IMG/VR virus record: IMGVR_UViG_3300036668_000241
Location: 8,329 to 72,328 of that record
Length of the DNA stretch: 64,000 nucleotides
Source: a virus
Direction: 5' to 3' (one strand)
Part shown: in pieces, positions 32,397 to 63,785 of the stretch
How positions within the stretch are numbered: position 1 is the stretch's first letter
Layout: each line of letters starts with the position of its first letter
Translations under genes and position numbers: made by a program
Notes under the pieces: generated by a model
The model's database searches: none
Seen by the model: the letters and a program-made list of their open reading frames with translations, nothing else
Told to the model about the DNA's origin: nothing

Positions 32397-32468
32397 AGTA
32401 CATACAAGGCATTAAACAAGAATGGAAAGAGAAAATACAGAGCCGGGGGCTAAGGGGGCATATAAACC

Positions 32469-33084: not shown

Positions 33085-33112
33085 GCACTACAAAACAACG
33101 GTACGACTCAAA

Positions 33113-33161
33113 GGCTGACGCAGAAGGATTCGAACCTTCAACCATCCGATTAACAGTCTGA
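33113..33161 (-). pseudogene. 3' half of tRNA-Asn(GTT)
   Basis: TCAGA-CTGTTAA-TCGGA, T arm GAAGG-TTCGAAT-CCTTC, acceptor strand TGCGTCA + G; no D arm or 5' acceptor strand upstream. Confidence 0.7.
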
Positions 33162-33365: not shown

Positions 33366-33924
33366 TATAATCTACTAAAGATAATTCTTCTTGGTCGGTA
33401 GGTTTTAACTGTAGGTACAGCTCATGGAGTATAGGAAATCCATCTACTCCCGTAAATGTTTCGTACCCCGCCAAAGAGAAATAAAGTTTCTGAATAAGAT
33501 CTTTACTTGCCTCATTCTGTTCTTGAATAGGAGCTTCTACTTCTTCAAGACCTAGAATATTAAAAGCATACTCTACAGTCAAAGCAACAGCCGTACTTGC
33601 AATTCCTTTATTTCTATGCGACTCGTCAATCCAATAACTAATGTAGCAATGGTTTTTTGTTATATTCCACAAAGTTACTTCACCTACGGGTGCAGCTTTA
33701 TGATAGACACCAAAAGGAATCTTAGGTTTTTTAACCGTTTCAATTATTTGATATGGAGATATTGAATCCAAGTTTTTTTCCCGCAGAGCAGCAAACATCA
33801 TTGAATCGTTCAGAGATAAAGTATTGACGAATACTGTGCCAAAGTTTAAATGTGCTGGCTCTATCTTATATTCTTCGTCCAAGTCTCGAATTCTAATGTT
33901 AGATGTGGGCATGTCCATGTTCAA
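33337..33924 (-). CDS. GNAT acetyltransferase (RimJ/RimL-like)
   Basis: ISYWID..HRNKGIAS.AV...AF..LGL..VEA.I...N.AS. Confidence 0.85.
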   Translation of the reverse strand: MNMDMPTSNIRIRDLDEEYKIEPAHLNFGTVFVNTLSLNDSMMFAALREKNLDSISPYQIIETVKKPKIPFGVYHKAAPVGEVTLWNITKNHCYISYWIDESHRNKGIASTAVALTVEYAFNILGLEEVEAPIQEQNEASKDLIQKLYFSLAGYETFTGVDGFPILHELYLQLKPTDQEELSLVDYIEEKYETKE

Positions 33925-34132
33925 TTTCTTTCATCTTTATATATAAACTGTTCAGGCAGTCAAGTGAACATGCGTGACTATCTATTGAAGATTGTCCTTC
34001 TTGCTGACCCTGCCAAGTAGCAACAGATATCCAGTTCTTTCTTGGAAAGTCTTCTAAGTTAGTTCCATCAACAGTTGCGTCTGCATCTACGGCTCCGCAA
34101 CCATCGCAGACAACTCCAACAATATATGTCAT
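33899..34132 (-). CDS. Small Zn-binding protein
   Basis: CDGCG...HACSLDC; start MTYIV after GAAGGG. Confidence 0.6.
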   Translation of the reverse strand: MTYIVGVVCDGCGAVDADATVDGTNLEDFPRKNWISVATWQGQQEGQSSIDSHACSLDCLNSLYIKMKEIEHGHAHI

Positions 34133-34172
34133 TACAGTCCCTTCGTTATGTAGTAGTAGCAAAACTCTACCA

Positions 34173-34352
34173 CTAACCTCCGTTAGAGTAAAACCCTCGG
34201 CCTTTAAACATGACAACAGTATTGTCAAACTTTCTTTTTAGTTTCTTAGCGCAGTCAGGTTTCGGGCAAGTAGTTCTTTGTTGAGGATCTGAGATCCCTC
34301 TAGTCTCGATATAAGGATGTCCAATCTCGCATACATATGAATATGTAGGCAT
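34173..34352 (-). CDS. FmdB-family zinc-ribbon protein (59 aa)
   Basis: Read manually: MPTYSYVCEIGH...CPKPDC...FKGRGFYSN. Confidence 0.75.
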   Translation of the reverse strand: MPTYSYVCEIGHPYIETRGISDPQQRTTCPKPDCAKKLKRKFDNTVVMFKGRGFYSNGG

Positions 34353-34486
34353 TAGATATGATGTCCTTCTATTTCGTTGGGAGCCTGCTTTAGTGGAGAG
34401 GTAGAGTATTCACATCTCATACAGATGTCTATACCTCTCCACACCTCAATGTCGTGACCTTGAGCGCAAGGATTTTCTTTAGGCAT
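34352..34486 (-). CDS. Small hypothetical protein (44 aa)
   Basis: MPKENPCAQGH...CMRC; coupled to flanking genes. Confidence 0.45.
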   Translation of the reverse strand: MPKENPCAQGHDIEVWRGIDICMRCEYSTSPLKQAPNEIEGHHI

Positions 34487-47958: not shown

Positions 47959-47997
47959 CTATAATAGATCTGCTACTAAGTAGTGGGTCTATTATAG
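47959..47997 (+). terminator. 18-bp RNA hairpin (terminator or processing site)
   Basis: CTATAATAGATCTGCTAC-TAA-GTAGTGGGTCTATTATAG pairs fully with three G-U pairs; T-rich tail. Confidence 0.65.
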
Positions 47998-48115: not shown

Positions 48116-48376
48116 ATGTTCAACAACAATTTCTGGATCGCAGCTTCCGAACGTGCCATCAAGACTTTTGCACAAGCCTTGCTTGCCCTTATCGGAACTG
48201 ATATGGTAGGGATTACTTCCCTTGACTGGCCTGCACTTCTCGCGGCCTCCGCAACGGCGACTCTGCTCTCCGTTCTCTCATCCGTAGGTTCCGCTAACTT
48301 CGGCAAGAACCCTGGACCGTCTCTTGCAGACGAGACAACCGAGTCGAAAACAACCTTTATTGAAAACGTAAAATAA
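48116..48376 (+). CDS. Holin, phage r1t family
   Basis: FW.AA.ERAIKTFAQ...DW...A.LLSVL.S......GPSL. Confidence 0.85.
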   Translation: MFNNNFWIAASERAIKTFAQALLALIGTDMVGITSLDWPALLAASATATLLSVLSSVGSANFGKNPGPSLADETTESKTTFIENVK

Positions 48377-50440: not shown

Positions 50441-50514
50441 GGGGCGGTAGCTCAGCTGGTTAGAGCCCCGAACTCATAATTCGGTCGTCGTCGGTTCGAG
50501 CCCGACCCGCCCCA
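50441..50514 (+). tRNA. tRNA with CAT anticodon (probably Ile2, otherwise elongator Met)
   Basis: GGGGCGG/CCGCCCC acceptor, GCTC/GAGC D arm, CCGAA-CTCATAA-TTCGG, GTCGG-TTCGAGC-CCGAC; CCA not encoded. Confidence 0.9.
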
Positions 50515-50586
50515 CCCGTGTCTCTTAGTAGCAAAACGAATATACTTAAAAAGACAAAACGACAAACTACGATTGGAAATCCAATT

Positions 50587-50913
50587 ATGTTTTTAGAAGC
50601 CCTAATTCTTGGAGCCTTATACCGTCAAGAGAGTGACGCAATAGAGTATGCATATGAACAGCCTAAGTCAGAGAAAGAACGAGACGAACTTATTTTTTCT
50701 TATGTCGGTTTAGGATTTCTTATCTGGCCTCTTCTTTCCTGTATCGGCTTGTTTAAGTCTAAATGCAGATGGTATGTTTCTATACTTCCCGTCGTGTTCG
50801 GCGCGATCCTTTTATATGTAGGATATTCAAACGGGGCATGGACTTATTACTTCACTTTCAGTGCTCTCTGGGCGCTTGTTGCATTTTTTGTACTAGGACT
50901 TACAACACCTTAA
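50587..50913 (+). CDS. Membrane protein (three TM helices)
   Basis: Hydrophobic segments; probable start MFLEAL. Confidence 0.55.
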   Translation: MFLEALILGALYRQESDAIEYAYEQPKSEKERDELIFSYVGLGFLIWPLLSCIGLFKSKCRWYVSILPVVFGAILLYVGYSNGAWTYYFTFSALWALVAFFVLGLTTP

Positions 50914-50925
50914 GGGAGAATAATA

Positions 50926-51246
50926 ATGTTATTGCGAAACTACATCGGATCCGAGATCCGGCGCGCCCGTGTTGACAAAGACATGACTTTGCGAAGTATG
51001 GCGATTGTATCCAATGTAACTATGAGTTATATTTCCGAAGTTGAGCGCGGCCTGAAGGAACCGAGTTCCGAGGTACTTCGTTCCCTATGCACCGCACTTG
51101 ACTATCCGGTTTCCTCCCTACTGACTGAGGTTAGTAGCAAGATGTTGATACATGAGATCGAACTGGAGTTGAAGCTCGGCAGCTACCCAACGTCAATAAA
51201 GTATTCCAAAGTGATCCAGGATGGCGGGTTGACAACCGTCGGATAA
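50926..51246 (+). CDS. XRE-family HTH regulator, ClgR-like
   Basis: LLR..IG..IRRAR....TLR......YISEVERG.KE.SSE.L...C.ALD. Confidence 0.8.
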   Translation: MLLRNYIGSEIRRARVDKDMTLRSMAIVSNVTMSYISEVERGLKEPSSEVLRSLCTALDYPVSSLLTEVSSKMLIHEIELELKLGSYPTSIKYSKVIQDGGLTTVG

Positions 51247-51257
51247 AGTTCTATAAT
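51229..51257 (+). promoter_or_regulatory. Consensus SigA promoter
   Basis: TTGACA-17-TATAAT. Confidence 0.85.
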
Positions 51258-51311
51258 AAAAGACGGAATGACAAAAGACAAACAACACCTATATCTACAC
51301 AAAGGGACATC

Positions 51312-52049
51312 ATGACAACAGGACTTAAGTTGAGCAAAGATCGCAAGGTTGCCAACATCGTAAATAAAGCAGGCACGCAAGCCGCTATGCACAACGCATT
51401 CGGGTTACCGGCAGGCGATCAATTCTCGTGCGGAGGCATGACAGATGTATGCGGCTCGATTTGCTACGCAAACAAACTAGAGAAGTTATTTCCTTCTGTT
51501 CGCGTATTGCTGATGCACAACTGGAACCTGCTAAAAGATGCGGATTTCGACACAATGGTCAACCTACTTGATGAAGTTATTTGCAAGTTTGAATCAGAGT
51601 GCGAGAAACGTTCCGCCAAAAAGATATTCAGAATTCACTGGGACGGCGACTTCTTTAGCATTGACTACGCTCGAGCATGGATCGAAGTTATCCGTTGTCA
51701 TCCTGATATACAATTCTGGTCATACACTCGGCAGGCGTTCGCTGCAGTTGAATTACATAAGTCTGGACTTATCAACGTAGCAAACTATTTCAGCGCGGAT
51801 AGTGCAAACTTGCCTATAGCAACAATGCTACGAAAGACCTACGGCATACGCCTAGCAATGCTTGCTGATAATTTCCAAGACGGTCAAGCCGTTATGCGTG
51901 AGATCACCGGCAAGGTTGGTGCAAAGTGCCCAGAGAATAATAAAGCGCAGGCGTTCGGATTAATCACAACCGAAGGATCGGCATGTAGTAGGTGCCGCCT
52001 ATGTGTGTTCGGCAAGGCTGACATAGTATTCAGCGCGACTAAAAAATAG
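51312..52049 (+). CDS. Mycobacteriophage gp88-like protein (radical-SAM-like Cys motif)
   Basis: NAFGLPAG...C...T..C...CYA, FRIHWDGDF, FWSYTR, C..C.LC. Confidence 0.75.
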   Translation: MTTGLKLSKDRKVANIVNKAGTQAAMHNAFGLPAGDQFSCGGMTDVCGSICYANKLEKLFPSVRVLLMHNWNLLKDADFDTMVNLLDEVICKFESECEKRSAKKIFRIHWDGDFFSIDYARAWIEVIRCHPDIQFWSYTRQAFAAVELHKSGLINVANYFSADSANLPIATMLRKTYGIRLAMLADNFQDGQAVMREITGKVGAKCPENNKAQAFGLITTEGSACSRCRLCVFGKADIVFSATKK

Positions 52050-52089
52050 TTTAGGCAGAGGGACTGCCACCAAATGACGGGAGTACGGA

Positions 52090-52332
52090 ATGAAAGTAAA
52101 AGATCTAATTCAGCAACTTAACGACCACTACAAACCGGAGGACGATATCTTCTTGATTTCTTGGGACAAGACCTTCGGAGCCGGTATGACAGAAGACGGC
52201 GTGCTAAGCGATGAGCAATGGGAAACCGCTGTTGCACTTATGGAGTTTAGAGAGCACAGAGATATGGAAAACGTAAACGGAGAGATGACAGAACTAATCC
52301 GTGAGAGAGTAAACGAAGCACTAGAGGACTGA
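52090..52332 (+). CDS. Hypothetical protein
   Basis: MKVKDLIQQL; GGAG RBS. Confidence 0.6.
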   Translation: MKVKDLIQQLNDHYKPEDDIFLISWDKTFGAGMTEDGVLSDEQWETAVALMEFREHRDMENVNGEMTELIRERVNEALED

Positions 52333-52481
52333 GATGTTTCTTAGTAGCACGAGTTAGAAGGTTGACAACCGCCAGAAAAAATGTAATAATAGAACTTGTA
52401 CGGCGAGGGTATGCGACCCCTAACGACTCGCTCCTTCGCCGTACAACCAAATGACAATTACAATACGACGGGAGCAAGACA

Positions 52482-52976
52482 ATGGGTTTAGATCAGTTCT
52501 TGAGAGTAAGTAAGACCTTCGGCTCGTATATCAACGACACCGAATCCGCTTCATACGACGCAATTAAGGCGGCGGCAGGGCTGGATAAGATCGGTAATTC
52601 GAACAGCAAATATGTCACAGTGGAAGTAACCGCACTCTACTGGCGCAAGGCAAACGCGATCCACGGCTGGTTTGTCAACGAACTGGCAGGCGGCGAGGAC
52701 GAGTGCCAAGTAATTCCAGTAACCCGTGAAAACATAACTACGTTGCGCGATCTTTGCGTAGACGCTATGAGTGTTCCAGCAGGTATGTCTCTTGATACTC
52801 ATGCGCGTACGGTGCTTCCCCCATCCGATGGGTTCTTCTTCGGTGGGTCAGAAATTGACGATTACTATATTCAAGATCTGAAGGACACAATCGAAGGTAT
52901 AAACCGTATCCTCGAAGAACTTCCAGAAACCGGCGAGAGCTGGGACTGGAGTTTGACATATCAAGCATCGTGGTGA
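52482..52976 (+). CDS. Conserved phage early protein
   Basis: MGLD...YWRKANAIHGWFV...GFFFG...YQASW. Confidence 0.7.
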   Translation: MGLDQFLRVSKTFGSYINDTESASYDAIKAAAGLDKIGNSNSKYVTVEVTALYWRKANAIHGWFVNELAGGEDECQVIPVTRENITTLRDLCVDAMSVPAGMSLDTHARTVLPPSDGFFFGGSEIDDYYIQDLKDTIEGINRILEELPETGESWDWSLTYQASW

Positions 52977-53155
52977 CACGGCTTGACAACGGGCAACCGA
53001 TTCGGTAGCCTCTAATCTTGTTGGTAGAGAACCCCCCTTCTCCCAACAACGAGTCCCGTCAGAGTTCTCCCCCGTCCTCTGGCGGGACTCACCTTTCTTA
53101 GTAGCACGAAAAAACAAACGACAAAACGACAAAAACTAGAAACCAGGAGTATACA

Positions 53156-53299
53156 ATGCCAATCTTTATCGAAGTTGAAGACACGGACGGCACGATCTTC
53201 GAGTGGGTAACAGACAGCGAAACTTTAGACAAGTTGCGCGGCCATCTTGGAGAACCGCAAAATGTCTACTCTTTAGTAGCAAGTGATCTCGCGGCTTGA
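53156..53299 (+). CDS. Small hypothetical protein (47 aa)
   Basis: AGGAG RBS; MPIFIEVEDTDG...; TTGACA-17-TAGCCT at 52983-53011. Confidence 0.55.
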   Translation: MPIFIEVEDTDGTIFEWVTDSETLDKLRGHLGEPQNVYSLVASDLAA

Positions 53300-53324
53300 C
53301 CGCGTGAAAGTAAACCTCTATAAT
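53296..53324 (+). promoter_or_regulatory. SigA promoter
   Basis: TTGACC-17-TATAAT. Confidence 0.8.
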
Positions 53325-53355
53325 AGGTAAACACCTACAAGATATGGAGAACAAG

Positions 53356-54018
53356 ATGCCAAACTGGGTTCATAACAGCCTAAACATTACCGGAGACAAA
53401 GAGCAGATCACGCGCCTAATCGCGCAGGTTTCTGCCCCCTACACCACAAAAGGTTCTGAGTGGGTAGACGGCAAGATGATTACGGTAGATGCCGTAGTCA
53501 CAGATCAAGATTTCTCATTCTGGAATATCTCACGGCCTGAAGGCGAGGACTTGGATAAGTACAACGAGTCTATGGGAGGTGGCACACACGCAACCCCTTT
53601 CTGGTACGAATGGAATAACACCCACTGGAATACTAAGTGGGAAGCCTGTGATGCCGTGAGTGACCTAATCCACGGAGAGAAGGAGAGTCAGGTTTCCTAC
53701 CACTTCCAAACGGCGTGGAGTCCACCAACTATCGTACTTGTTAAGTTGGCACAGCAATACCCAACGCTAAACATGACATTCTTCTGGGAAGAAGAGCAGG
53801 GTTTCGGTGAGGACTTAGAGATTACCGGCGGGGAGATTGTCGTCAATGATTCGTGGGATATCCCAGAGACACATGAGGACACAATGAAACGGCGCGACTA
53901 CTGCTATTGCGAAGATGCAGAAGATCAAGATGATATTCCGTTTGATGATTGCCCGACTAAGTTTGATCCGAATATGATAATTGACAAAAACGAAATAGAA
54001 ATGGAGGCACTAATATGA
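53356..54018 (+). CDS. DUF1281/Api92-like ferredoxin-fold protein
   Basis: MPNW..N.L.I.G...WYEW...HW.TKW...F.TAWSPP. Confidence 0.75.
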   Translation: MPNWVHNSLNITGDKEQITRLIAQVSAPYTTKGSEWVDGKMITVDAVVTDQDFSFWNISRPEGEDLDKYNESMGGGTHATPFWYEWNNTHWNTKWEACDAVSDLIHGEKESQVSYHFQTAWSPPTIVLVKLAQQYPTLNMTFFWEEEQGFGEDLEITGGEIVVNDSWDIPETHEDTMKRRDYCYCEDAEDQDDIPFDDCPTKFDPNMIIDKNEIEMEALI

Positions 54019-54248
54019 GTAACGTGACATCACTTACTTACTTCGCAACTGACGGGAACTACGGGAACGCAGGAGGTCTCACCGTTGTAGATACGTCTGC
54101 ATGGACAGACCTTGACTTCGAGTTGCTAGATGGCGTGACAGATGAGTTGCGCCCTACTGCCGGTCGAACGATCTCCGATTGGATTGAGGGTGGTCGAACA
54201 GATGACTACAATACTTACTTCCAGAAATTGGGAATAGATATTCCTTAG
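54015..54248 (+). CDS. Hypothetical protein
   Basis: YFATDGNYG; stop codon lies inside a TTAGTAGCA copy. Confidence 0.6.
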   Translation: MSNVTSLTYFATDGNYGNAGGLTVVDTSAWTDLDFELLDGVTDELRPTAGRTISDWIEGGRTDDYNTYFQKLGIDIP

Positions 54249-54426
54249 TAGCACGATTTATATGATCGTCCCTGCCGTGAGGTGGGGACTTTCGTATTTA
54301 GTAGCAAAGTTGCGTATCTACTTAGTAGCAACACGCAAACTTCGATATAGATTTGACAAGTACTCGAATAACCTGTAAGTTTGCTCTTGTAAGGAAAACA
54401 CCTACTAAACGACAGAAGGAAATAAA

Positions 54427-54918
54427 ATGGACGTTACTAAGTCAGTTCAGGGGATCGCCGTCTATGGTGAGTTTGTACGCCCCGGTACTACCACGCAGGT
54501 TATTGTTACTCCTGACGGACGCAACACATCAGGCGACAAGGTTGAGATGCACATTGTGCGCCGAACAATCAGCCTATCTACACCACGCAAGCAATGGCGT
54601 TTCAGCACACTATCTACCACTGACCCAATTACAACCTACGCAGGGTCAAACGTAGACGCTCTAAAAGAGATCTACTGCGACAATCGCATGAGGTACGCCT
54701 CGTCATTGTTCGAGCAACTGGCACGCGGAGATTGGTTCTTAGTAGCAGATCCAATTCTGGTTGAGGTCTCCAAAATGGATATGGATCATATCTCCATAAA
54801 CAAGACACCTACCAAATTGCTTTATCGCATCACGCAATCCCGTCTAATGATTCCGGGATATCCAACTGACGTTGTAAATGAAGAAATAACCACAACACCT
54901 ACACTTGCCACTATTTAG
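54427..54918 (+). CDS. Hypothetical protein
   Basis: TTGACA-17-TAAGTT (54353-54381), AAGGA RBS; stop inside a motif copy. Confidence 0.65.
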   Translation: MDVTKSVQGIAVYGEFVRPGTTTQVIVTPDGRNTSGDKVEMHIVRRTISLSTPRKQWRFSTLSTTDPITTYAGSNVDALKEIYCDNRMRYASSLFEQLARGDWFLVADPILVEVSKMDMDHISINKTPTKLLYRITQSRLMIPGYPTDVVNEEITTTPTLATI

Positions 54919-55984
54919 TAGCAACGAGCCGAAGGATAAAAAAATGTTATCAGAAAAGTTTGCAAATATCGGATCAGTCTCAGAGCCAACAAAGTTCTGG
55001 AGCATGGTTGTCGAAGTCGCTGCACAAATGGACGTACCAGAGTCTGCTATGAAATTGTCATCAGAGGTATTGCCACAGGGTCGGTACGTCGAACGTGCTG
55101 CAAATGGGACACGCAAGCCAAAGACTCCAAAGGCACTCCCCACCGTTGAGTCATTAGATGCAGATACCGAATATCTGCGACCTAATGGAATGATCTATCA
55201 CACCCGCGAATGGGGAGAGCATGGAGATGTCGCTGCCCTACGCAAGGCGCGTGAAGTTACGGCGCAAGCCTTCACAGAAAGTTCCGGCTCTCCAATGTTC
55301 TCGCTGCTCTACGGCGCACCCGGCTGCGGAAAGACTGCACTAGTTGAGGCTGCTTTCGGTGAGAATATCTACACGATCTTGGGGACTGGCGATACCGAAG
55401 TGGCAGACATGATCGGTGGATATATTCAGACACCTAGTGGTGGCTTCGAGTGGTTGGACGGCGACCTATTAAAGGCTGCCGAAAATGGTGGAGTCTACTT
55501 CATAGATGAGGTCGGACTCATTGACCCGAAGGTTCTCTCCATTGTGTACGGACTCATGGACGGACGGCGCGAGATCACTGTCACCGCAAACCCAGAGCGA
55601 GGCACAGTCAAGGCTCACCCAGAGTTCTATGTAATCGCTGCTACTAACCCAAACGCACCCGGCGTTCGGTTGTCAGAGGCTTTGCTGTCGCGGTTCACTA
55701 TTCAGGCAGAGATGACAACAGATTGGAGTCTGTCACGCAAACTAGGCGTAAGCACCACTATGGTGACGGCTGCACAGAATCTAGCCAAGAAGCAAGCGAG
55801 CCACGAAGTTTCATGGTCTCCACAAATGCGCGAACTACTAGCCTTCCGCGATATATCCGTATCGTTCGGAGTCCCGTTCGCCATATCAAACCTACTCGCT
55901 GCTGCACCCGAAATTGACCGCCCAGTCGTCGCTGACGTACTGACGCGAGCGTTCGGTAGTGAGTGCAAGCCTGCCAAGATCTAA
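54905..55984 (+). CDS. MoxR/CbbQ/CobS-like AAA+ ATPase
   Basis: GAPGCGKT, FIDEV, AATNP, ALLSRF; true start uncertain. Confidence 0.88.
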   Translation: MPLFSSNEPKDKKMLSEKFANIGSVSEPTKFWSMVVEVAAQMDVPESAMKLSSEVLPQGRYVERAANGTRKPKTPKALPTVESLDADTEYLRPNGMIYHTREWGEHGDVAALRKAREVTAQAFTESSGSPMFSLLYGAPGCGKTALVEAAFGENIYTILGTGDTEVADMIGGYIQTPSGGFEWLDGDLLKAAENGGVYFIDEVGLIDPKVLSIVYGLMDGRREITVTANPERGTVKAHPEFYVIAATNPNAPGVRLSEALLSRFTIQAEMTTDWSLSRKLGVSTTMVTAAQNLAKKQASHEVSWSPQMRELLAFRDISVSFGVPFAISNLLAAAPEIDRPVVADVLTRAFGSECKPAKI

Positions 55985-56103
55985 TCCTTCGATCTGGCAG
56001 ATCGGGGGAGTCGGTGTAGGTGCTGACTCCCCCACCCTTCCATTCTTAGTAGCATGGTGATACGCTCTCCATAAGTAATCGGACACTAAACAAAGGACAC
56101 AAA

Positions 56104-57903
56104 ATGGGACACTACAAAATTGACGGAACACGCGCAGAGATGACAGACCCTAAGTGGTTGAGAGTTGGCAGTCAGGTTGGCGCACTCGCAAATGAGTGGT
56201 CAGATCGGTCAGACATTATTGCCTACGTTGGATCTGGTGCTGGTGGAGAAGCCCCTGCATGTTTCATACCTGCAAGCGCAGAGGTTGAGGTGAACGTAGA
56301 CGTTGCTTTTGGGTATGGCGTAGAGCCTGCCGACATTGACTTGACTACGCGGTCAGGACGCTACGAGTTTCCATGCGCTGTCGGTGCGATCTTGCATGAA
56401 GCCTTTCATGCAAAGTTCTCAAAGTGGGATCTACTAAAGGCACGAAAAGATCTAAAGAAAGATGAGTTTGAGGCTTTGATGCTGCTAGAGGAAAGTCGGA
56501 TCGAAGCACACGGTATTCGGTCGAAGCCAAAAGCAAAGCCTTTCCTTGAGACTTGCGCTATGGAAATTGTTATCGCAGATGCTGGCGAACAGTTTGCAGA
56601 AATGAGTAGCACAGAGAAGGCTGCCCTACTGGTCGCATTAGTTTGGGCGCGTGTTGATCTTGGGATTCTAAAGTTTCGAGATGTCGCAAAAGTTACGGAC
56701 TTGATTGACGAATACTTAGGGCTAGATGTGATTGCAGAGTTGCGCGATCTTGCTACTAAGGCACAGAGGCATGGCGATCATTATGACGCTACCGACATGT
56801 ACCCGATTGCGATTGAGTGGGCAAAGATTGTGCGCGAGGTCGCAGAGGAAAAAGGCGAAGGTTCCCCAGACTCTGGCGAAGGCGAAGGCGAAGGCGAAGG
56901 CGAAGGCGAAGGCAACGAGTTTATGGATAATCTTATGGACGCATTAAACGAGGCTGCCGACAACGTATCCGTTAGTAACAGTGACTCACTTGGCGACGCG
57001 GAGACAATGGAAAAGTATGAAGAAGTTGTCAAAGAAAAGTCAGACAAATCCAAAGAGAGAAAAGATGCCAAAGAAATGGCGAGCAAAATCTTTGGATCTG
57101 GTACGGCAGAAGTTGTTGGAGCCGGAACATTCTCTACGTTGAAAGAGACCCGAAATCCACGGTCAGATGAACGGATCGCTGCAACAATTATTGCTACTAA
57201 GTTGGAGAAGGCAAAGTACCGCGACCGTGATGTGACCAAGGTGTCAAGCATTACGCCACCCGGACGGCTTCGCGCACGAACAGCGGTTCAAGGTGCTGCC
57301 ATGAAATCGCGCGGAGTGATGACACAACCAGAAGCATGGCGCAAGAAGGTTCGCAAACAAACGGACGAACCCACATTGACTATCGGAGTCATGGTGGATA
57401 TCTCCGGCTCAATGGGCGACGCTATGGAGCCAATGGCAACTATGGCATATGTCTTGAGCGAGGCTGCCGTCCGTGTTCAGGGCAAGGCTGCAATGGTCTA
57501 CTACGGCAACACGGTATTTCCCACACTTCGACCCGGCGAGCGCATGGATCAGGTCAAGGTCTATACCGCTTCCGACGCAACCGAAAAGTTTAATGACGCT
57601 TTCCTTGCTCTTGACGGTTCGATCAACCTGCTAAACGGCGAGGGTGCAAGACTGCTGGTAGTTGTTAGTGACGGTCACTATGTCAGGGACGAGGCGGTCG
57701 CTGCCCAACGCTGGGTCAAGCGGTGCGCTGAACAGGGCGTGGCGGTTGTATGGCTACCGTTTGACGAAGGTTCAACGGCTAGGGCATTGGCTGGTGACAA
57801 CGCGGTCGTACTATCCGGCAGGTTTAGCCCAACGGCTGCTGCCGACAAGATCGGTGCTGCATGTGAAAAAGCGATCTCAAGCGCAACGGCGCGCAAGATG
57901 TAG
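56104..57903 (+). CDS. VWA-domain partner protein (CobT-like) with HExxH motif
   Basis: HEAFH, LEESRIE, acidic GE linker, MIDAS DISGS, VVSDG. Confidence 0.85.
   Translation: MGHYKIDGTRAEMTDPKWLRVGSQVGALANEWSDRSDIIAYVGSGAGGEAPACFIPASAEVEVNVDVAFGYGVEPADIDLTTRSGRYEFPCAVGAILHEAFHAKFSKWDLLKARKDLKKDEFEALMLLEESRIEAHGIRSKPKAKPFLETCAMEIVIADAGEQFAEMSSTEKAALLVALVWARVDLGILKFRDVAKVTDLIDEYLGLDVIAELRDLATKAQRHGDHYDATDMYPIAIEWAKIVREVAEEKGEGSPDSGEGEGEGEGEGEGNEFMDNLMDALNEAADNVSVSNSDSLGDAETMEKYEEVVKEKSDKSKERKDAKEMASKIFGSGTAEVVGAGTFSTLKETRNPRSDERIAATIIATKLEKAKYRDRDVTKVSSITPPGRLRARTAVQGAAMKSRGVMTQPEAWRKKVRKQTDEPTLTIGVMVDISGSMGDAMEPMATMAYVLSEAAVRVQGKAAMVYYGNTVFPTLRPGERMDQVKVYTASDATEKFNDAFLALDGSINLLNGEGARLLVVVSDGHYVRDEAVAAQRWVKRCAEQGVAVVWLPFDEGSTARALAGDNAVVLSGRFSPTAAADKIGAACEKAISSATARKM
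56875..56910 (+). repeat. (GGCGAA)6 in-frame microsatellite
   Basis: Encodes the GEGEGE linker. Confidence 0.85.
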
Positions 57904-58110
57904 CGCGTGCTACTAAGAAGGTTGTCCCCTTCGTGTCCGGCACGCGCACAAAGTCACCCCCCATGTTTAGGCGTGGGGGGTTTGACTTGTCTGACGTTAG
58001 TAGCACGACACGGCGCGCGATCAAGTTTCGATAACGGCTTGCATGTTGGACTCTACTTTGCTAAACTGAACACATCACGGACAGCCCGTGGTGATGAGCA
58101 AGGAGTCCAC

Positions 58111-58503
58111 ATGGCTATACGCAAAACGAACAAGGGAACCGTATCGGTATCCCATAAGGGCGCGCTGGTTGCAACCGGCGAGGTAGCCGAAGCAGTAGCA
58201 GTCATCAGTAACATGCGTGCTACTAAGAAACAATGCACGAACAAAGAAAAGACTGCCAAGGATCTTGTGGAGCAGGCTGCTGGGAACCGCGCTCGAATTA
58301 TCCTCAATGAGGACGGGGACGTAATTTGCGAGATCATCAAAGTTGTTGCCGAAACAACCAAACTTGATGACTTCATTATTGAACTAGAACGGCTGTACCC
58401 AAAAGAGTGGGCGGTACTCATGGACTCCGACCCCAGGGCGATTGAACTGACCAAGGTCGCTGCTACTAAAGAGGGAGTGAGTTACAGAGTTATGCCGAAG
58501 TAA
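58111..58503 (+). CDS. Hypothetical protein, paralog of 63393-63785
   Basis: AAGGAG RBS, MAIRK...; TTGCAT-17-TAAACT (58039-58067). Confidence 0.7.
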   Translation: MAIRKTNKGTVSVSHKGALVATGEVAEAVAVISNMRATKKQCTNKEKTAKDLVEQAAGNRARIILNEDGDVICEIIKVVAETTKLDDFIIELERLYPKEWAVLMDSDPRAIELTKVAATKEGVSYRVMPK

Positions 58504-58636
58504 TCGGAGCGTGAGGGGATCCCCAATCGGGATCCTCTCACAATCGGTTAGTAGCACGACACGGCGCGCAGGGGGCAGGCTTGCATTGTCGGTCAGAACT
58601 GATAAACTGGACACACCACCTACGAAAGGACACCAG

Positions 58637-58870
58637 ATGACAACAATCTTGAATCCACAAAGCAGTCGGATACGGTTATTCGTTTCCATGCAAGCACTGG
58701 ACATGTATCTAAAGAGCAACGGGGCGATGGAACTCACTCGCAACGGATCACGAAACGCGGTTGCGATTATCGAGGAAGCAACCGGCAAGACATACAAGCG
58801 GTCAATGAAAGGCAAGCGCGAAGCACTAACGGACGTTAAGGACTTGCTGGGCGAGGGGATATCATCATGA
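58637..58870 (+). CDS. Hypothetical protein
   Basis: GAAAGGA RBS, MTTILNP. Confidence 0.6.
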   Translation: MTTILNPQSSRIRLFVSMQALDMYLKSNGAMELTRNGSRNAVAIIEEATGKTYKRSMKGKREALTDVKDLLGEGISS

Positions 58871-59256
58871 GTCGCAGGTACGAAACAACAAAGACCGACC
58901 TAGACAACTATCGGTTAATCACGGACAAAGTGCGCGAGGATCTGCGCGAGGAGTTTGGTTTAGTTGCTACTAAGTATGACGGCGTAGAGGTGCTAACAAT
59001 TAGAGGAGACCTAGGCGTATGCACAGAGTGCCTACGGAAAGACCGCGCAGAATCTGAAACAGACGTCTCCACAGTCGTCTACAACTTGATTGTGCCGGTG
59101 CAAGAGGATCACGGCGTGGACTGGACAGAAGGCGAGACAGTCTGTGATGAGTGCGGTGAGATTAGTTGGTGTTCAACAATGGACGAACTTGATGAGTCCA
59201 ACCGTCAAGATGCAGGCGAGGCGCGCTACGAACAGATGAAAGATGAGGGGTGGTGA
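58867..59256 (+). CDS. Zn-binding hypothetical protein
   Basis: CTEC...CDECG. Confidence 0.6.
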   Translation: MSRRYETTKTDLDNYRLITDKVREDLREEFGLVATKYDGVEVLTIRGDLGVCTECLRKDRAESETDVSTVVYNLIVPVQEDHGVDWTEGETVCDECGEISWCSTMDELDESNRQDAGEARYEQMKDEGW

Positions 59257-59387
59257 ACACGGTGACCCTCACGGAGAAGGGAGAAAACGTGCTACTAAGA
59301 GTATGGGCAACCGTCAAGGTGACGGGCGCGATAGGTGGGATCCTTGCAATCATGTTGGTTGCAGGCGCGATAGAAGCGGGCGGTTGA
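59253..59387 (+). CDS. Small membrane peptide (44 aa)
   Basis: GTGA overlap; hydrophobic C-terminal half. Confidence 0.45.
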   Translation: MNTVTLTEKGENVLLRVWATVKVTGAIGGILAIMLVAGAIEAGG

Positions 59388-59388
59388 A

Positions 59389-59661
59389 ATGAACGGATAT
59401 GCAGTTGCTACTAAGAGAGTGAACTTCGAGATTGAGAACGGATCCGAAGTCTGGGAGATAATGATGCAGGTAATGAGTGACGGAATGACTTTTGTATTCG
59501 CAGAAACAGAATATGAATCGCCATTCGGAGTACAGCGCGACATTCACGACGGACTGGACTTCGATACCGCGCCGACAGTTGCAGACATTCTGATGCGGAT
59601 AGACGAAGAACGCGAGAATCTCTGGGATCAAGAGCAGGAGAGATCCCAAGCACCTGATTAA
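59389..59661 (+). CDS. Acidic hypothetical protein
   Basis: Coupled ORF. Confidence 0.55.
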   Translation: MNGYAVATKRVNFEIENGSEVWEIMMQVMSDGMTFVFAETEYESPFGVQRDIHDGLDFDTAPTVADILMRIDEERENLWDQEQERSQAPD

Positions 59662-59824
59662 GTAGCACGACAGGGGAAGGAGAAATCCTTCCCCAGTTGT
59701 GTCGGTAACCCCTAAAAAACGTTTTTTGGGGACAGACCTTTTTTTGCTTAGGCTTGCACTTAGTGTCGAGTTCGCGTATTCTCTTAGTAGCACAAACAAT
59801 CACCTACAACGAAGGAGAGACATC

Positions 59825-60130
59825 ATGGCACTAAGTTACGCGGGCATTAAGGGCAAGATCTCCGAGCGCGAAATCTTTACCGGCAACAGCATGACTGCCG
59901 AGTACGTCCAGAATGAATACGCCTCATTAGGGCGACTCCCAACCCATGACGCAAGCGTCCTACGCGCCGACATTCAACGCGCAAAAGACAATGCCGACAG
60001 CGTTTATGTAATCTATTCGTATGCCACGCCGATTGCATGGGCATACGGTGACACGGTGCGCGTACCAGAGGTTAAGTACAGCGTTACCACGTCGAAGCAA
60101 CAGAGTCTAGTGCGCGGATACCTAAGGTAG
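59825..60130 (+). CDS. Conserved phage protein (YSY.TPIA...YSVTTSK.Q type)
   Basis: AAGGAG RBS; TTGCAC-17-TATTCT (59754-59782). Confidence 0.7.
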   Translation: MALSYAGIKGKISEREIFTGNSMTAEYVQNEYASLGRLPTHDASVLRADIQRAKDNADSVYVIYSYATPIAWAYGDTVRVPEVKYSVTTSKQQSLVRGYLR

Positions 60131-60139
60131 ACTTGCATC

Positions 60140-60313
60140 ATGGCTAATCGTGCTACTAAGAAGGACAGGGGGCGCACCTTGTACGGGGTAGGTGCGCCCG
60201 GAAACTTCGCGCTCAATACTCACGCGCCACGCTTTGCCGACAGGCGCACGAAACGAAACAGATCACGCGCCGAAATCGAGCGCAAAGCAGTTAATGAGTC
60301 TAAGTCTAGTTAG
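60140..60313 (+). CDS. Small basic protein (57 aa)
   Basis: Read manually: MANRATKK...DRRTKRNRSRAEIERKA; motif copies near start and at stop. Confidence 0.55.
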   Translation: MANRATKKDRGRTLYGVGAPGNFALNTHAPRFADRRTKRNRSRAEIERKAVNESKSS

Positions 60314-60393
60314 TAGCAGGCAGTCTTGCACTTGTCAGAGAATACTGATACGCTGGATACATACCGCAAAGCGCGGTCAAGATAGGGGACATC

Positions 60394-60588
60394 ATGATTA
60401 TTAAAGTTCAAGATTATCATTTTGATTGGATATGGCACATCATGTATCAGCCACACATGGAGATGATCACGCTACCCCAAGGGGGGGAAGTCATGTTTCT
60501 ATCTGATGAAACCAAATCAATCCGGTTGGACACAATTAAAAAGATTAAGTTCGTGGCCGAACTTCCAATAGTTGCTACTAAGAGATAG
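60394..60588 (+). CDS. Hypothetical protein
   Basis: TTGCAC-17-TACGCT (60326-60354), AGGGGA RBS. Confidence 0.5.
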   Translation: MIIKVQDYHFDWIWHIMYQPHMEMITLPQGGEVMFLSDETKSIRLDTIKKIKFVAELPIVATKR

Positions 60589-60948
60589 GGATCAAATGAA
60601 AAAGACGAGCGAATTCGCCACACTCGAAGAGTATGACGCATACCTTGACATTTTGATAGGAGACAGGTCGGGGATCCATACTCGTTGCGAGGACTTTCCG
60701 TGCTGCGGTCACGGACAAGACGGCTGCCACAATAAACAGACGTAAAGTCTCAAAGACCAAGCCCTCACCCTCACAGCTGTGGGCTTGGTCTTTTGGTAGC
60801 AGGGGATGGAACCCCAAATTTCATTTTTTGGGGGTAGAGGGCGAATTAGGTGCTCGTTGCGGTCAAGCTTGCTTTTGTCAGTCCCATGTGGTGTACTTCT
60901 CTTAGTAGCAGTTCTGCGAAATACGCGGATCGAAAGGGGCGGGGAGAT

Positions 60949-61158
60949 ATGCCAAAGCAAGGGACAGTCACAGTAGTTTCAGTCCGACCATTCTGTGACT
61001 TTGGATGCACGTCAGAGGCAAAAATTGACGGGCGCACCCAAATGGGATCATGGGCGAATATGTGCTTAAATCATTGGCTCATGTACGGCTGCGGGAAATT
61101 GGGCGTGGGGCACGGTCAAAAGCTGGCACTTGCCCCTAAGAATGAAGGGGGCGAGTGA
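60949..61158 (+). CDS. Small Zn-binding protein
   Basis: CDFGC...DG.T..GSWANMC..H...LG.G.GQ. Confidence 0.65.
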   Translation: MPKQGTVTVVSVRPFCDFGCTSEAKIDGRTQMGSWANMCLNHWLMYGCGKLGVGHGQKLALAPKNEGGE

Positions 61159-61159
61159 T

Positions 61160-61498
61160 ATGGGATTCGACATGAGTCTGGACTACGCCAATGGGACATG
61201 TTTACAGGGGCGCATAGACATAACTAGAGCGCGTATCGAAGAGGTGTTTGGCGCACCTCTGTACGACAGCACCGACAATGACGAAAAAGTCATGACAGAG
61301 TGGGGCATCATGTTTGATGATGGAACATGCGCGACTATCTATGACTGGAAACGCTACGAAATGGGCGCGGTTGGATTCCATGAAGTTTATGACTGGCACA
61401 TAGGTGGAACTAGCCATGATGCTATGGACAAGGTTACAGCGTTGCTACTAAAGAGAGGGGGTGAGCGAGATGACTGGAGTTACATTAACAATTCATGA
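61160..61498 (+). CDS. Conserved phage protein
   Basis: GT.LQG...KV..EW...ATIYDWK...WHIGG. Confidence 0.7.
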   Translation: MGFDMSLDYANGTCLQGRIDITRARIEEVFGAPLYDSTDNDEKVMTEWGIMFDDGTCATIYDWKRYEMGAVGFHEVYDWHIGGTSHDAMDKVTALLLKRGGERDDWSYINNS

Positions 61499-62042
61499 TC
61501 AGGCTAAGGGGATTGCTCCGACACAAACTTTCACGTTTGAGTGCCATAGTCCCGAAAGACTGGCAGAAATTGTTCAGGGCACGTTCGACAACATGCCAGA
61601 GAGTGCGCGGATTACGCAGATTCATGTGAACTAATTAGATTTACTTAGTAGCACGACACCTACCTTAAGGTGTTGCCTAAGTAATTAGGATTCGGAGAGG
61701 GGGACACGCGCCCCCTCTCCACACCATAACAGTGTGCTACTAAGAGAGAGAGACATCATGACAACAGACAAAGCAAAGACGATTACAGGGGTAGTCCTAT
61801 CCTTGGCCATAGTTGGGACGCTGGTAGGCATGGTTATGTCCATGCAAAGTCACGGACTACTTTGGTAGCACGCGAAAATTAAAGGGGAGTCGCGGAGATT
61901 CGTGGCTCCCGTTTAGTTTCGAGGAACCAGAAAAAATGTTTTTTCTGACATCCCCGCCGCGCGGTCAGACTTGACAGATAATTATTTTCATGATGTAATT
62001 CTTCTATCACTCCAAGGGGGGTGATCAACGAAAGGACACAGC

Positions 62043-62417
62043 ATGAGGGCATTGACAGTGAACGCAGAGACACTAGAAACAACTCTGATTGACCTGCCAC
62101 GCGAGGGCGCACTTGCACAATTACAGCATGAAGTTGGCGGATATATCGAAGCGGTACGGTTAGAAGAGTTTGATTTCTATCTCAATGAAGAGGGCAAGAT
62201 GATTGGCCTACCTCTCAATGAAGTGGGCACGCTGCTTTGGGAGAGCGTATATGGTCAGACCGACGTGATCATGGGTAATATCGTTGTCGTAGGTAAGCCT
62301 GATGATGAGGGCTACGAAACAGAGTTAAGTTTAGAGAGCGCGCAAGAGATTCAGAATATCGCCATTACGTTGCAAGTCACGCGGTTTGGTAATGCGCTTA
62401 TGGCGCGCGGTAACTAA
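62043..62417 (+). CDS. DUF3846-like protein
   Basis: LQ..VGGYIE...NEEGK..GLPLN...D.I.G..V..G; TTGACA-17-TGTAAT (61971-61999). Confidence 0.75.
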   Translation: MRALTVNAETLETTLIDLPREGALAQLQHEVGGYIEAVRLEEFDFYLNEEGKMIGLPLNEVGTLLWESVYGQTDVIMGNIVVVGKPDDEGYETELSLESAQEIQNIAITLQVTRFGNALMARGN

Positions 62418-62861
62418 TCCTAGTCAAGGGGAGAGAGTGCATGTCTGACATTCTCTCCCCCTACACTTTAGTAGCACGATTTATATGCTACTAAGAAAGA
62501 CACGCAAAGCGTCGCTCAGCAAAGAGTAAGGCTCGCGCACGTCGCGCATCACGCAACCAACGCCCATTGACAGGCGTGGACATCATTGGCGGTATCGCCC
62601 TCATGTTCGGATTCATATTGTTCGTAGCACTATTCGTTTAATCGTGCTACTAAGAGAAGGGGAGATCATGACAACACAGACACAGACACTTTGCAAGGAT
62701 TGCAATATGTATCCTGCGATTCAGATTCAGCCGGAATACACAGAGCGTTGCCGGTACTGCCACAATAAATTGTGGAAGAAATAATCATGCTACTAAGAGG
62801 GAGCACGATGATGATTTATGTTCCCATTATTCATGCTACTAAGAGAGAGAGTGACAAAGAG

Positions 62862-63134
62862 ATGACAACACCATTGATATTTATCACAGATCCTGGACAT
62901 GGTTGGCTAGAGGTAGACCTAGCAGATTTCCCAGAAGCATTTGATTGTGGGACAGGATACGGATACATAGACGAAGCGCGCGGAAAGATATACCTCGAAG
63001 AGGATACAGAGCTTTGGGCATTCTTGAAGACTCACCCAGAGATTAACGACCGCATTACAGAGAAGGTGTGGGCAGACAGAGACGCACCATTGCGAAGCCT
63101 GCCAAGGAACGAGGCCAGACTTGTGAGGGCGTAG
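62862..63134 (+). CDS. Conserved phage protein (DPGHGWL...YLEED)
   Basis: Motif recognition; probable start MTTPL. Confidence 0.65.
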   Translation: MTTPLIFITDPGHGWLEVDLADFPEAFDCGTGYGYIDEARGKIYLEEDTELWAFLKTHPEINDRITEKVWADRDAPLRSLPRNEARLVRA

Positions 63135-63392
63135 GTATTAGTAGCGAGGGGGCGTGGCGAGAGTCGCGCAGCGAGACTTACGCGGATCATTGTCGCGTAA
63201 CCCATCAGCCCACAGAGTGACCCACAGAGATTATCTGTGGGTTGCTGTGTTATCAGTAGCAAAGCCCCCTAACCCCAAAAAATGTTTTTTAGGGCTGGTG
63301 TTTTTTCGAGGTTTGACTTGCTTATTGTTTCAATTCATGGCACAATTGACCTATCGCCGAAAGACGGTGGTGAACGACGAAGGGACAGGCTC

Positions 63393-63785
63393 ATGGCCGT
63401 AAGAAAAAGTGTTAGGGGCACAGTCACTGTGACCAAGCAAGGCGCGATCGTCGCAAATGAGATCGTGACAAAAGCAATCGCAGACATCAGCAACATGCGT
63501 GCTACTAAGAGAGAGTGCACTAAGGCTGAGGACGCTGCCAAGGTGGTTGTCTATCAGGCGGTCGGGGATCGTGCTCGCATGATTCTTGATCTCGAAGGTA
63601 ACCTAATCTGCGAGGTCAAAGAGGTCATGACTAACAAAGTCACTGTCGATGCCTTCGTGGACGCGCTGGAGACCTTATTTCCCACAGTCTGGATCGCTTT
63701 GATGGACATCAACCCTCACGCGGTAGAGAGTGCTAAAAAGTTGGCGAATGAGCAGGACAGTTACCTAAAAGTCCTCCCCAAATAA
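63393..63785 (+). CDS. Hypothetical protein, paralog of 58111-58503
   Basis: MAVRK...ISNMRATK; TTGCTT-17-CACAAT (63318-63346). Confidence 0.7.
   Translation: MAVRKSVRGTVTVTKQGAIVANEIVTKAIADISNMRATKRECTKAEDAAKVVVYQAVGDRARMILDLEGNLICEVKEVMTNKVTVDAFVDALETLFPTVWIALMDINPHAVESAKKLANEQDSYLKVLPK

Follow-up and report, generated by a model that had tools for sequence, protein, structure and literature searches.

The locus and its array of a single 9-mer

The DNA considered here, a stretch of 64,000 nucleotides (the window), comprises bases 8329-72328 of one 72,328-bp virus contig, IMG/VR record IMGVR_UViG_3300036668_000241, and its right-hand part is densely populated by one asymmetric 9-mer, TTAGTAGCA, and its reverse complement, TGCTACTAA. 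Among the encoded proteins are collagen-like tail fibres, a large terminase subunit, a primase-helicase, a ribonucleotide reductase, ThyX and an RNA ligase, a set that indicates a tailed actinobacterial phage as the source. The primase-helicase is ~50% identical to its counterparts in large Microbacterium phages and 69% identical, over the matched part, to that of the Actinomycetia phage DSL-LC01 (OQ999401), a metagenome-assembled genome of 129 kb that is the nearest named one. The stretch is represented in public sequencing runs of salt-lake, aquatic and ice metagenomes. The completeness of the contig is 55% as estimated by CheckV, which corresponds to a whole phage of roughly 130 kb. All credible genes between 45 and 64 kb lie on the + strand, and a heuristic gene map places 28 genes, all on +, over 50518-63785, so that 81% of this stretch is coding. 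The motif-rich zone, the in-window part of which is 50525-63508 (also ~81% coding), is bordered on the left by a tRNA-Met gene (50441-50516, + strand), the first copy of the word beginning 8 nt downstream of it, and on the other side by the portal module; it therefore belongs to the non-structural part of the genome. Its small genes and host-type promoters suggest a region of the early type. No integrase or partition gene was detected among the proteins scanned, which represent a subset of the open reading frames (ORFs) from the ~115 of roughly 130 kb that were covered.

A search of both strands of the window recovered 40 exact copies of TTAGTAGCA, as opposed to a mean of 0.50 and a maximum of 2 in 100 dinucleotide-preserving shuffles of the window. 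Thirty-six of them fall in 50525-63508, where ~0.1 would be expected in 13 kb; 18 read as TTAGTAGCA on the + (coding) strand and are termed '+' copies below, while the other 18 read as TGCTACTAA on the same strand and are termed '-' copies. The initial annotation of this DNA, made from the letters alone, had listed the same 18 and 18 positions in the zone, and every one proves to be an exact copy. It had counted only two copies in the first 50 kb; there are in fact four scattered ones, at 37217, 41458, 43795 and 47971, those at 41458 and 43795 having been overlooked. Upstream of the window, the first 8.3 kb of the contig have none, and the 59 kb of contig outside the zone hold these four copies in total. 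One of the outliers (47971-47979, '-') lies in a terminator-like hairpin with an 18-bp stem (47959-47997), between a small gene and an r1t-type holin gene (48116-48376). Within the zone neighbouring copies are spaced by 371 bp on average, with a standard deviation of 290.

The word is sharply defined, in that only 9 one-mismatch copies are found in the zone (3.0 are expected from 30 shuffles); the near-copies previously named at 59659, 60793, 61862, 63138 and 63820 are all present. The conservation extends more weakly into the flanks: a C stands immediately 5' of the core in 25 of the 36 copies ('+' 10/18, '-' 15/18; background 22%) and CG immediately 3' of it in 13 ('+' 7/18, '-' 6/18; background 6%), yielding a full site of approximately yTC-TTAGTAGCA-CGa. 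In a test of binding the site would be represented by TCTTAGTAGCACGA. Chance or artefact was rejected on the strength of the shuffles and of the recurrence of the array in several independent assemblies. A 14-mer scan of viral contigs recovered mostly unrelated sequences; seven of these, from other phages, have two copies 24 nt apart in a conserved coding stretch, which was judged a coincidence. Other abundant k-mers of the contig (e.g. GGACCTAC, 55 copies) reflect the collagen-like Gly-X-Y repeats of the tail-fibre genes (window 6462-15870) and are unrelated to the 9-mer.

Selection on the DNA rather than the protein

On the gene map 15 of the 36 copies lie wholly in genes, 18 are wholly intergenic and three supply a TAG stop codon. 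Shuffling of synonymous codons within the genes (500 rounds) leaves on average 0.73 in-gene copies and at most 4, against the 15 observed. The in-gene copies are read as ATK or ATN (11), LLK (1), LVA (2) or VSS (1), in agreement, on this heuristic map, with the readings proposed earlier, and 11 of the 12 '-' copies in genes share a single frame, encoding Ala-Thr-Lys or Ala-Thr-Asn. No tripeptide is more frequent in the proteins of the zone than ATK (11 occurrences versus 1.2 expected), and 10 of its 11 occurrences are encoded by the motif. Where a 599-aa CobT-like protein has two ATK tripeptides, four distant homologues have, in gap-free alignment, ARK/IEK/WLE/WNE and AQM/AKA/ARL/GQL. These two copies arose by amino-acid-changing point substitutions and not by insertion; an in-frame 9-nt insertion of the word was rejected, since the copies in both the ATPase and the CobT-like genes align gap-free with the four homologues. 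Comparison with a 98%-identical contig (L121) shows 0 mismatches at 309 motif positions, as opposed to 241 at 15,675 other aligned positions (1.54%; p = 0.008), although, the four close relatives being nearly identical in sequence, this conservation counts as one comparison.

Selection thus acts on the DNA, at a cost to the protein. The initial annotation had reached the same view from the variety of in-gene readings, and it is now borne out by the codon shuffle, the excess of ATK, the substitutions in the CobT-like protein and the flanks common to both orientations. The finding of a distinct array stands, in that the enrichment withstands codon shuffling, close relatives preserve the motif and the copies are spread very unevenly.

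A set of two to three paralogous small genes in the zone (window 58111-58503 and 63318-63785, and ~15966 of L121) retains the word at an RATK position throughout, and these paralogues are only ~60-70% identical. For the 155-aa member an Atlas search returned viral clusters without a name, and a family search and a search of solved structures (ORF 63318) gave nothing useful.

Orientation and context of the copies

The two orientations are distributed unevenly both along the zone and with respect to genes. Left of ~55.3 kb there are ten '+' copies and no '-' copy, and right of it eight '+' and 18 '-' copies (Fisher p = 0.0003); the switch occurs between 54915 and 55639, with the direction of transcription unchanged. 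Copies that are intergenic or sit on a stop codon make up 15/18 of the '+' class versus 6/18 of the '-' class (Fisher p = 0.006). Likewise, a hairpin of -15 kcal/mol or lower is present within the preceding 50 nt of 6/18 '+' copies and 1/18 '-' copies, compared with 8% of 400 random positions. A regular-expression search for -35/-10 pairs recovered 13 on the + strand and 1 on the - strand; of the eight promoters so defined in the zone, six are accompanied by a '+' copy (between -55 and +31 relative to the -35 box) and not one by a '-' copy. A consensus scan brings the number of promoters to nine with the one at 52362, which a '+' copy precedes by 12 nt. In the opposite orientation, 6/18 '-' copies terminate 14-19 nt ahead of a start codon, the interval containing a purine-rich ribosome-binding site. 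These are 60573, 61443, 61735, 62645 and 62834, along with 62788 only if its gene starts at the alternative ATG 62808, which is 11 nt from the copy, rather than at 62862, 65 nt away, as on the heuristic map. Two further '-' copies fall among codons 1-9 of a gene, and the remainder are mid-gene or near gene ends.

Seven adjacent pairs are less than 100 nt apart, four inverted and three direct, so that there is no bias between the two arrangements. Three of the inverted pairs (57908/57997, 58461/58548 and 61645/61735) are 87-90 nt apart around a hairpin, and the fourth (62468/62486) constitutes a 9-bp inverted repeat with a 9-nt spacer. A relationship to miniature inverted-repeat transposable elements was considered and rejected: the three pairs enclose 96-99 bp, but their interiors are unrelated by eye and one has the opposite orientation of its ends. 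Two readings as part of a promoter were also discarded, namely TGCTACTAA as a host sigma-70 -10 or extended -10 element, there being no TAnnnT hexamer on either strand, and an element like the MotA box, there being no fixed distance to a -10 box.

The individual positions illustrate these tendencies. All ten copies of the left part are '+' copies, beginning with 50525-50533, which is intergenic and follows the tRNA-Met gene. The next, 51131-51139, lies in the gene for a ClgR-like protein (read as VSS), 107 nt before its stop codon and 89 nt before the -35 box of a sigma-70-like promoter (51229-51257, +; TTGACA-17-TATAAT). The copy at 52341-52349 comes 8 nt past a stop codon and is followed after 12 nt by the -35 box of the promoter recovered by the consensus scan (52362-52390, +; TTGACA-17-AATAAT, with TG before the second hexamer). 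While 53098-53106 is intergenic and directly follows a -28 kcal/mol hairpin, 53273-53281 lies at the 3' end of a 47-aa ORF (LVA), with the -35 box of another sigma-70-like promoter 14 nt further on (53296-53324, +; TTGACC-17-TATAAT). The TAG of 54245-54253 is the stop codon of the gene 54015-54248; the intergenic copy 54298-54306 comes 8 nt past a terminator-like hairpin (54268-54289), and 54322-54330, 24 nt from it, is 22 nt upstream of the -35 box of a promoter-like site (54353-54381, +; TTGACA-17-TAAGTT). The gene 54427-54918 contains 54739-54747 (LVA) and takes its TAG stop codon from 54915-54923, with the start codon of the ATPase gene 20 nt on. The segment 52983-53106 is, as a separate observation, a candidate small RNA, with a promoter-like site (TTGACA-17-TAGCCT) and then the -28 kcal/mol hairpin up to the copy at 53098; no Rfam family reaches its gathering score over this segment.

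To the right of the switch, 55639-55647 ('-') lies in the AAA_5 ATPase gene, in a conserved A-T-N, and could reflect a chance choice of codons. The copy at 56046-56054 ('+') is intergenic, after a -27 kcal/mol hairpin and 49 nt before the CobT-like gene, within which are found 56751-56759 and 57192-57200 (both '-', ATK), the two copies attributable to substitutions relative to the four homologues. Four nucleotides past the stop codon of this gene is 57908-57916 ('-'), the inverted partner across a hairpin of 57997-58005 ('+'), which in turn follows a -26 kcal/mol hairpin and precedes by 32 nt the CTTGCA of a promoter-like cassette (58038-58067, +; CTTGCA-18-TAAACT). A 130-aa gene contains 58218-58226 ('-', RATK), at the position equivalent to 63500 in its paralogue, and, 34 nt before its stop codon, 58461-58469 ('-', ATK), whose inverted partner 58548-58556 ('+') again follows a -26 kcal/mol hairpin and is 23 nt upstream of the CTTGCA of a second cassette (58580-58608, +; CTTGCA-17-TAAACT). 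Three '-' copies read as ATK come next, 58965-58973 in a 129-aa gene, 59290-59298 in a doubtful 49-aa ORF and 59406-59414 at codons 7-9 of a 90-aa gene. The '+' copy 59784-59792 begins 1 nt past the -10 element TATTCT of a third cassette (59753-59782, +; CTTGCA-18-TATTCT), over the likely transcription start. A basic 57-aa gene has 60151-60159 ('-', RATK) at codons 5-7 and obtains its TAG stop codon from 60310-60318 ('+'), 6 nt upstream of the CTTGCA of a fourth cassette (60325-60354, +; CTTGCA-18-TACGCT).

Further to the right, 60573-60581 ('-', ATK) is made of the last codons of a 64-aa gene, with the next ATG 14 nt on, and 60902-60910 ('+') is located just past a promoter-like stretch (CTTGCT...TACTTCT) at a mosaic breakpoint relative to L121. 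The copy 61443-61451 ('-', LLK) is in a 112-aa gene, 18 nt before the next ATG. Another mosaic breakpoint is marked by 61645-61653 ('+'), 10 nt past a stop codon, and its inverted partner 61735-61743 ('-') follows a -23 kcal/mol hairpin and precedes an ATG by 14 nt. The inverted repeat is formed by 62468-62476 ('+'), after a -23 kcal/mol hairpin, and 62486-62494 ('-'), again at a mosaic breakpoint. The last four are '-' copies: 62645-62653, 14 nt before an ATG; 62788-62796, 3 nt past a stop codon and at a mosaic breakpoint; 62834-62842, 19 nt before the ATG at 62862; and 63500-63508 (RATK), in the 155-aa paralogue of the 130-aa gene. A side observation on the starts themselves is that six ORFs of the zone (61758, 62668, 62862 and others) open with ATGACAACA (Met-Thr-Thr), often 14-19 nt past a '-' copy.

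Phyletic distribution of the array

Two IMG/VR contigs that are 98% identical to the source, G001 and G002, contain 43 and 46 copies in total. In G001 the array spans 416-16342 and then ends, with a single further copy in the remaining 39 kb, which encode the portal protein, a 3770-aa helicase-domain protein and other virion genes; in G002 it comprises 43 copies over 17.1 kb. The array of the 98%-identical contigs is thus ~17 kb long, with 42-43 copies, and stops before the portal gene, ~4 kb past the zone as seen in the window. The zone does not lie at the end of the genome, as the contig is a fragment and the array continues beyond it. Two features of G001 may be recorded in passing. The 3770-aa ORF (24354-35666) has a match to a helicase-family PHROG at residues 1781-2198, residues 1-2382 having been scanned, and at 13323-13340 a '-' copy abuts a one-mismatch '+' copy, forming a near-palindromic 18-mer that is followed by a candidate tRNA-like T-arm.

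More distant relatives share the ATPase/CobT-like gene pair, at 47-69% amino-acid identity, and the same surrounding block of small genes, but they carry 0-5 copies of TTAGTAGCA (DSL-LC01 none in 129 kb, G004 five in 127 kb). Instead, they display words on one strand and at fixed positions, in the manner of ordinary promoters and leaders. In DSL-LC01 (L143, OQ999401.1 14313-44127) a promoter-like cassette, gaTTCTAAAGATGTTATAaT, occurs in 17 one-strand copies, each after a GC-rich terminator hairpin, and a leader word, AACGACGAAAGGACAA, precedes start codons, its core being present in 16-18 one-strand copies. These relatives lacking the array, the two-strand 9-mer array is specific to the present lineage. 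Protein-anchored scans of viral and metagenome contigs recovered no intermediate relative, as the 599-aa protein finds matches either at 97-99% or at no more than 59% amino-acid identity; one contig (L096), a 5.4-kb fragment, is 86% identical in nucleotides over its aligned parts.

Among contigs assigned to cellular genomes, the ribonucleotide reductase of the phage has a single relative (56% identity), on L144 (JBDNFI010000028.1, 106 kb), from the bin of a Cyclobacteriaceae metagenome-assembled genome. L144 is probably of phage rather than host origin and was mis-binned, and the Cyclobacteriaceae genome has the word at background frequency (43 occurrences versus 39 of a control word).

Candidate readers of the word

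The sole recognisable DNA-binding gene of the zone encodes a 106-aa protein of the HTH_3 family (50926-51246, + strand), a homologue of ClgR, the regulator of Clp-protease genes in actinobacteria, that matches solved ClgR chains with an E-value of 2e-16. The initial annotation had proposed it as a possible binder along with ORFs at 22272 and 41377, all three described as helix-turn-helix (HTH) proteins. The description holds for 50926, whereas 22272 and 41377 have neither a match to an HTH family nor an informative solved relative. Even the ClgR homologue is a weak and unlikely candidate, as the published ClgR site, WNNWMGCYNNNRGCGWWS (PMC2905415), is roughly symmetric and unlike the 9-mer, and as this site is not enriched in the window. 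Homologues of this protein are also present in relatives that lack the array (38% identity in L127). Family scans of ~70 proteins encoded by the window and by close relatives likewise turned up no repressor of the L5 type, no direct search with a gp71-type sequence being included in them. One of the proteins covered, a giant 2843-aa ORF that enters the window from upstream on the - strand (G000:C1:1873-10404), shows only weak ubiquitin-related Pfam matches.

Besides the ClgR homologue, the zone encodes an AAA_5 (MoxR-like) ATPase next to the 599-aa CobT-like protein (54944-57903), and the close relative G001 has a peptidase of the HslV family at 14755-15345 (L129:3256-3846). Taken together, the ClgR homologue, the ATPase/CobT-like pair and the HslV-family peptidase look like a module aimed at the control of host proteolysis.

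Comparison with known repeat systems

The array resembles several systems in which a short word recurs through the non-structural part of a phage genome, but it lacks defining features of the two to which the initial annotation had compared it. The stoperators of Cluster A mycobacteriophages (the L5 gp71 type), as portrayed in PMC9283540, are similarly short asymmetric words present in tens of copies in an actinobacteriophage, at promoters and in intergenic gaps, with orientation being of consequence. With 36 copies in the zone and 42-43 in the relatives, likewise non-palindromic, the present array passes the threshold of 20 copies for such a system. The core of the Cluster A site is 13-14 bp long, in contrast to 9 bp here; the sites have one orientation relative to transcription, whereas the rightward block has 18 '+' and 18 '-' copies; and they are distributed genome-wide and mostly in intergenic regions, as against ~17 kb with 15/36 copies in genes, the other 39 kb of G001 having but one. 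Cluster A phages are temperate, use the sites for immunity and employ a monomeric repressor with HTH and stoperator domains, while the scans described above gave only the 106-aa ClgR-like protein and no integrase.

The start-associated sequences (SAS) of Cluster K and their extended form (ESAS; PMC3203893) are also asymmetric repeats of the non-structural genome part, a subset of which directly precedes start codons. They are 13 bp long with a Shine-Dalgarno core inside, stand 3-7 bp from the start in nearly one orientation, and number 11-19 copies; the core of the array has no Shine-Dalgarno sequence, only 6/36 of its copies are 14-19 nt from a start and half of them face the opposite way. 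The stoperator and SAS analogies are thus partial ones.

The promoter early stem-loop (PeSL) cassettes of T4-type phages (PMC2839356) offer another parallel: they occupy a hyperplastic region of small non-essential genes with sigma-70-like promoters and terminator stem-loops and mark the boundaries of insertions, deletions and replacements. There the repeated unit is an entire promoter-plus-terminator cassette, as opposed to the 9-13 bp shared by the array, whose promoters and hairpins differ between sites and which is also found in genes. The SPβ repeated element (SPBRE) of the Bacillus prophage SPbeta resembles the array in its history, in that the repeat was predicted in silico long before its binder MrpR was found; it is a 15-bp site in ~10 promoter regions of a temperate phage (PMC10516654), and MrpR, the master repressor, is a dead tyrosine recombinase, i.e. 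a protein of unexpected fold. By analogy, the protein that binds the array may not look like a regulator. The distant relatives themselves (DSL-LC01; L124-L128, L140) are comparable in having a syntenic small-gene block around the AAA_5 ATPase/CobT-like pair and regulatory words after terminator hairpins, but these words are on one strand and in a fixed place relative to starts. In the papers searched on stoperators and SAS, on DSL-LC01 and on two-orientation 9-bp phage repeats no description of the word or the lineage was found, which is no proof that none exists.

Functional interpretation

The presence of the same flanks in both orientations within a block transcribed in one direction, the creation of the word inside a conserved gene and its confinement to one module together argue for recognition as double-stranded DNA rather than for an RNA element or a promoter. 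The prevalence of one orientation at unit ends, hairpins and promoters, with the other in gene interiors, suggests an action on RNA polymerase that depends on orientation. We tentatively propose, with a rough probability of 0.45, that the 9-mer is the recognition site of one sequence-specific protein, probably phage-encoded, that punctuates transcription units in an orientation-dependent fashion. The sites are spread at ~370-bp mean spacing through the ~17-kb one-directional block of accessory small genes, those that read TTAGTAGCA along the coding strand being located on or behind stop codons, downstream of terminator hairpins and ahead of or over host-type promoters, and those of opposite orientation in gene interiors and just before ribosome-binding sites. 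The bound protein might then, depending on its orientation, block RNA polymerase or insulate against it, shutting those promoters whose start site it covers and backing up the terminators between units, while in the permissive orientation a bound site may only mark or load the region. Such a function would be reminiscent of the operator/stoperator network of Cluster A mycobacteriophages; in L5-type phages the monomeric repressor acts orientation-dependently on asymmetric sites, and reversal of the site abolishes repression (PMC9283540).

Several observations weigh against this proposal. The context rule explains the orientations only partly, since the left part is all '+' and three of its '+' copies are inside genes. 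The distances from copy to -35 box vary (6, 12, 14, 22, 23, 32 and 89 nt), and only two copies, 59784 and 60902, both '+', begin 1 nt after a -10 box and so over the likely start. The gene map and the promoters are heuristic. With 36 exact copies to 9 with one mismatch, the word is sharper than is usual for transcription-factor sites. As regards a reader, the ClgR word has 6 matches in the window (one mismatch allowed) versus 8.9 expected, and Pfam and/or PHROGs scans of the ~70 proteins, the 2843-aa ORF included, gave no repressor-like match other than the ClgR homologue.

The other explanations that have to be weighed differ in what would read the word. Comparison with L121 shows that four of the six junctions within the zone are at most 20 nt from an exact copy (60892, ~61654, ~62505 and ~62809), a fifth being 27 nt from a one-mismatch copy, and that the cassettes present only in the relative bear their own copies at the usual places. 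Contigs from four other runs show joints with copies beside both ends (61753>62810, 59796>60916 and 61658>63492), though these were aligned at 80% likeness in metagenome contigs and are unreliable. Since the '-' copies are direct repeats of one another, as are the '+' copies, the motif and its flanks might serve as short homologies for the swapping, insertion or deletion of cassettes among co-infecting relatives, which would keep the accessory region open to shuffling, a role proposed for the T4-type PeSL cassettes (PMC2839356). We regard this as rather unlikely: mosaic joints of phages are usually at gene boundaries, as are the copies, so that their coincidence is confounded; homologous exchange would have to rely on a very short stretch of 9-13 bp; and a boundary role does not account for the 15 in-gene copies, two of them made by amino-acid changes in the conserved 599-aa gene. 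A composite scheme, in which a protein without a recognisable family provides the orientation-coded punctuation and its sites double as joints for cassette exchange, so that acquired genes would automatically come under the same control, is likewise hardly probable. At the RNA level, the '-' copies ahead of start codons would place UGCUACUAA beside the ribosome-binding site, as an SAS-like site for a translational regulator or nuclease, or else the two orientations might pair as a 9-nt seed, for which the exactness of the word and the four inverted pairs within 100 nt, three of them around a hairpin at 87-90 nt, would be suitable. An RNA signal is nonetheless an improbable explanation, given that half of the copies have the other orientation with the same flanks on a one-directional block, that many '+' copies follow terminator hairpins or precede promoters, where little RNA is expected, and that at 59784 and 60902 the RNA would start inside the copy. 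Moreover, the close adjacent pairs are inverted about as often as direct (4 and 3), and 12 of the '-' copies are not start-proximal.

The sharp change of orientation between 54915 and 55639 without a change in transcription (p = 0.0003) would alternatively suit a polar signal, like Chi, the FtsK orienting polar sequences (KOPS) or Ter, for an enzyme tracking along DNA, such as a helicase-nuclease of host or phage, a translocase, a replication fork or a packaging motor, with its polarity turning at ~55.3 kb. Setting aside the promoter-side '+' copies, the genic ones are indeed all '+' left of the turn and all '-' right of it; copies have arisen within long genes, as though their density along the molecule were important, and the spacing (mean 371, standard deviation 290) fits such a signal. 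Yet the turning point lies inside the ATPase gene and no special feature was seen there, confinement to ~17 kb of a roughly 130-kb genome would be odd for a repair or replication signal, and the known Chi and KOPS words are shorter than a 9-mer, making this quite an unlikely reading. Least plausible, and in our estimate very unlikely, is a phage-specific promoter, or part of one, recognised by an RNA polymerase, sigma factor or activator of the phage. Relatives do carry 9-17 one-orientation promoter cassettes in the same zone, and the occurrence of TCGTGCTACTAAGAGAG followed by a start codon has what we take to be a superficial likeness to promoters of single-subunit phage polymerases. On the other side are the presence of both orientations on a one-directional gene block, the lack of a fixed distance to starts or -10 boxes and the ~10 host-type promoters that already serve the zone, a ratio like that in DSL-LC01. 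In the two records scanned (G000 and G001, the genome being incomplete), sigma-70 regions 2 and 4 (PF04542, PF04545) matched in neither, with controls matching in 11-14 of 14 genomes; the single-subunit polymerase family PF00940 also matched in neither, a weak result as its control matched in none.

Biological implications

Dense arrays of a single word are among the few handles available on how uncultured phages control their blocks of small genes of unknown function. The present one is unusually clean, consisting of an exact word in one module, with an orientation tied to context and forced into coding sequence by amino-acid changes, and experiments on binding, roadblock action and recombination are simple to design with a 14-bp oligonucleotide. 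Were its sites to act as joints for recombination, they would show how the accessory regions of such phages stay shuffleable; were they to combine punctuation with exchange, the array would amount to a regulatory and evolvability device of a kind not described for any phage. If, on the other hand, a polar roadblock protein were to be found, the 9-mer would represent a compact orientation-dependent insulator of transcription, and the stoperator principle would reach beyond the temperate mycobacteriophages to large, probably lytic, aquatic actinophages.

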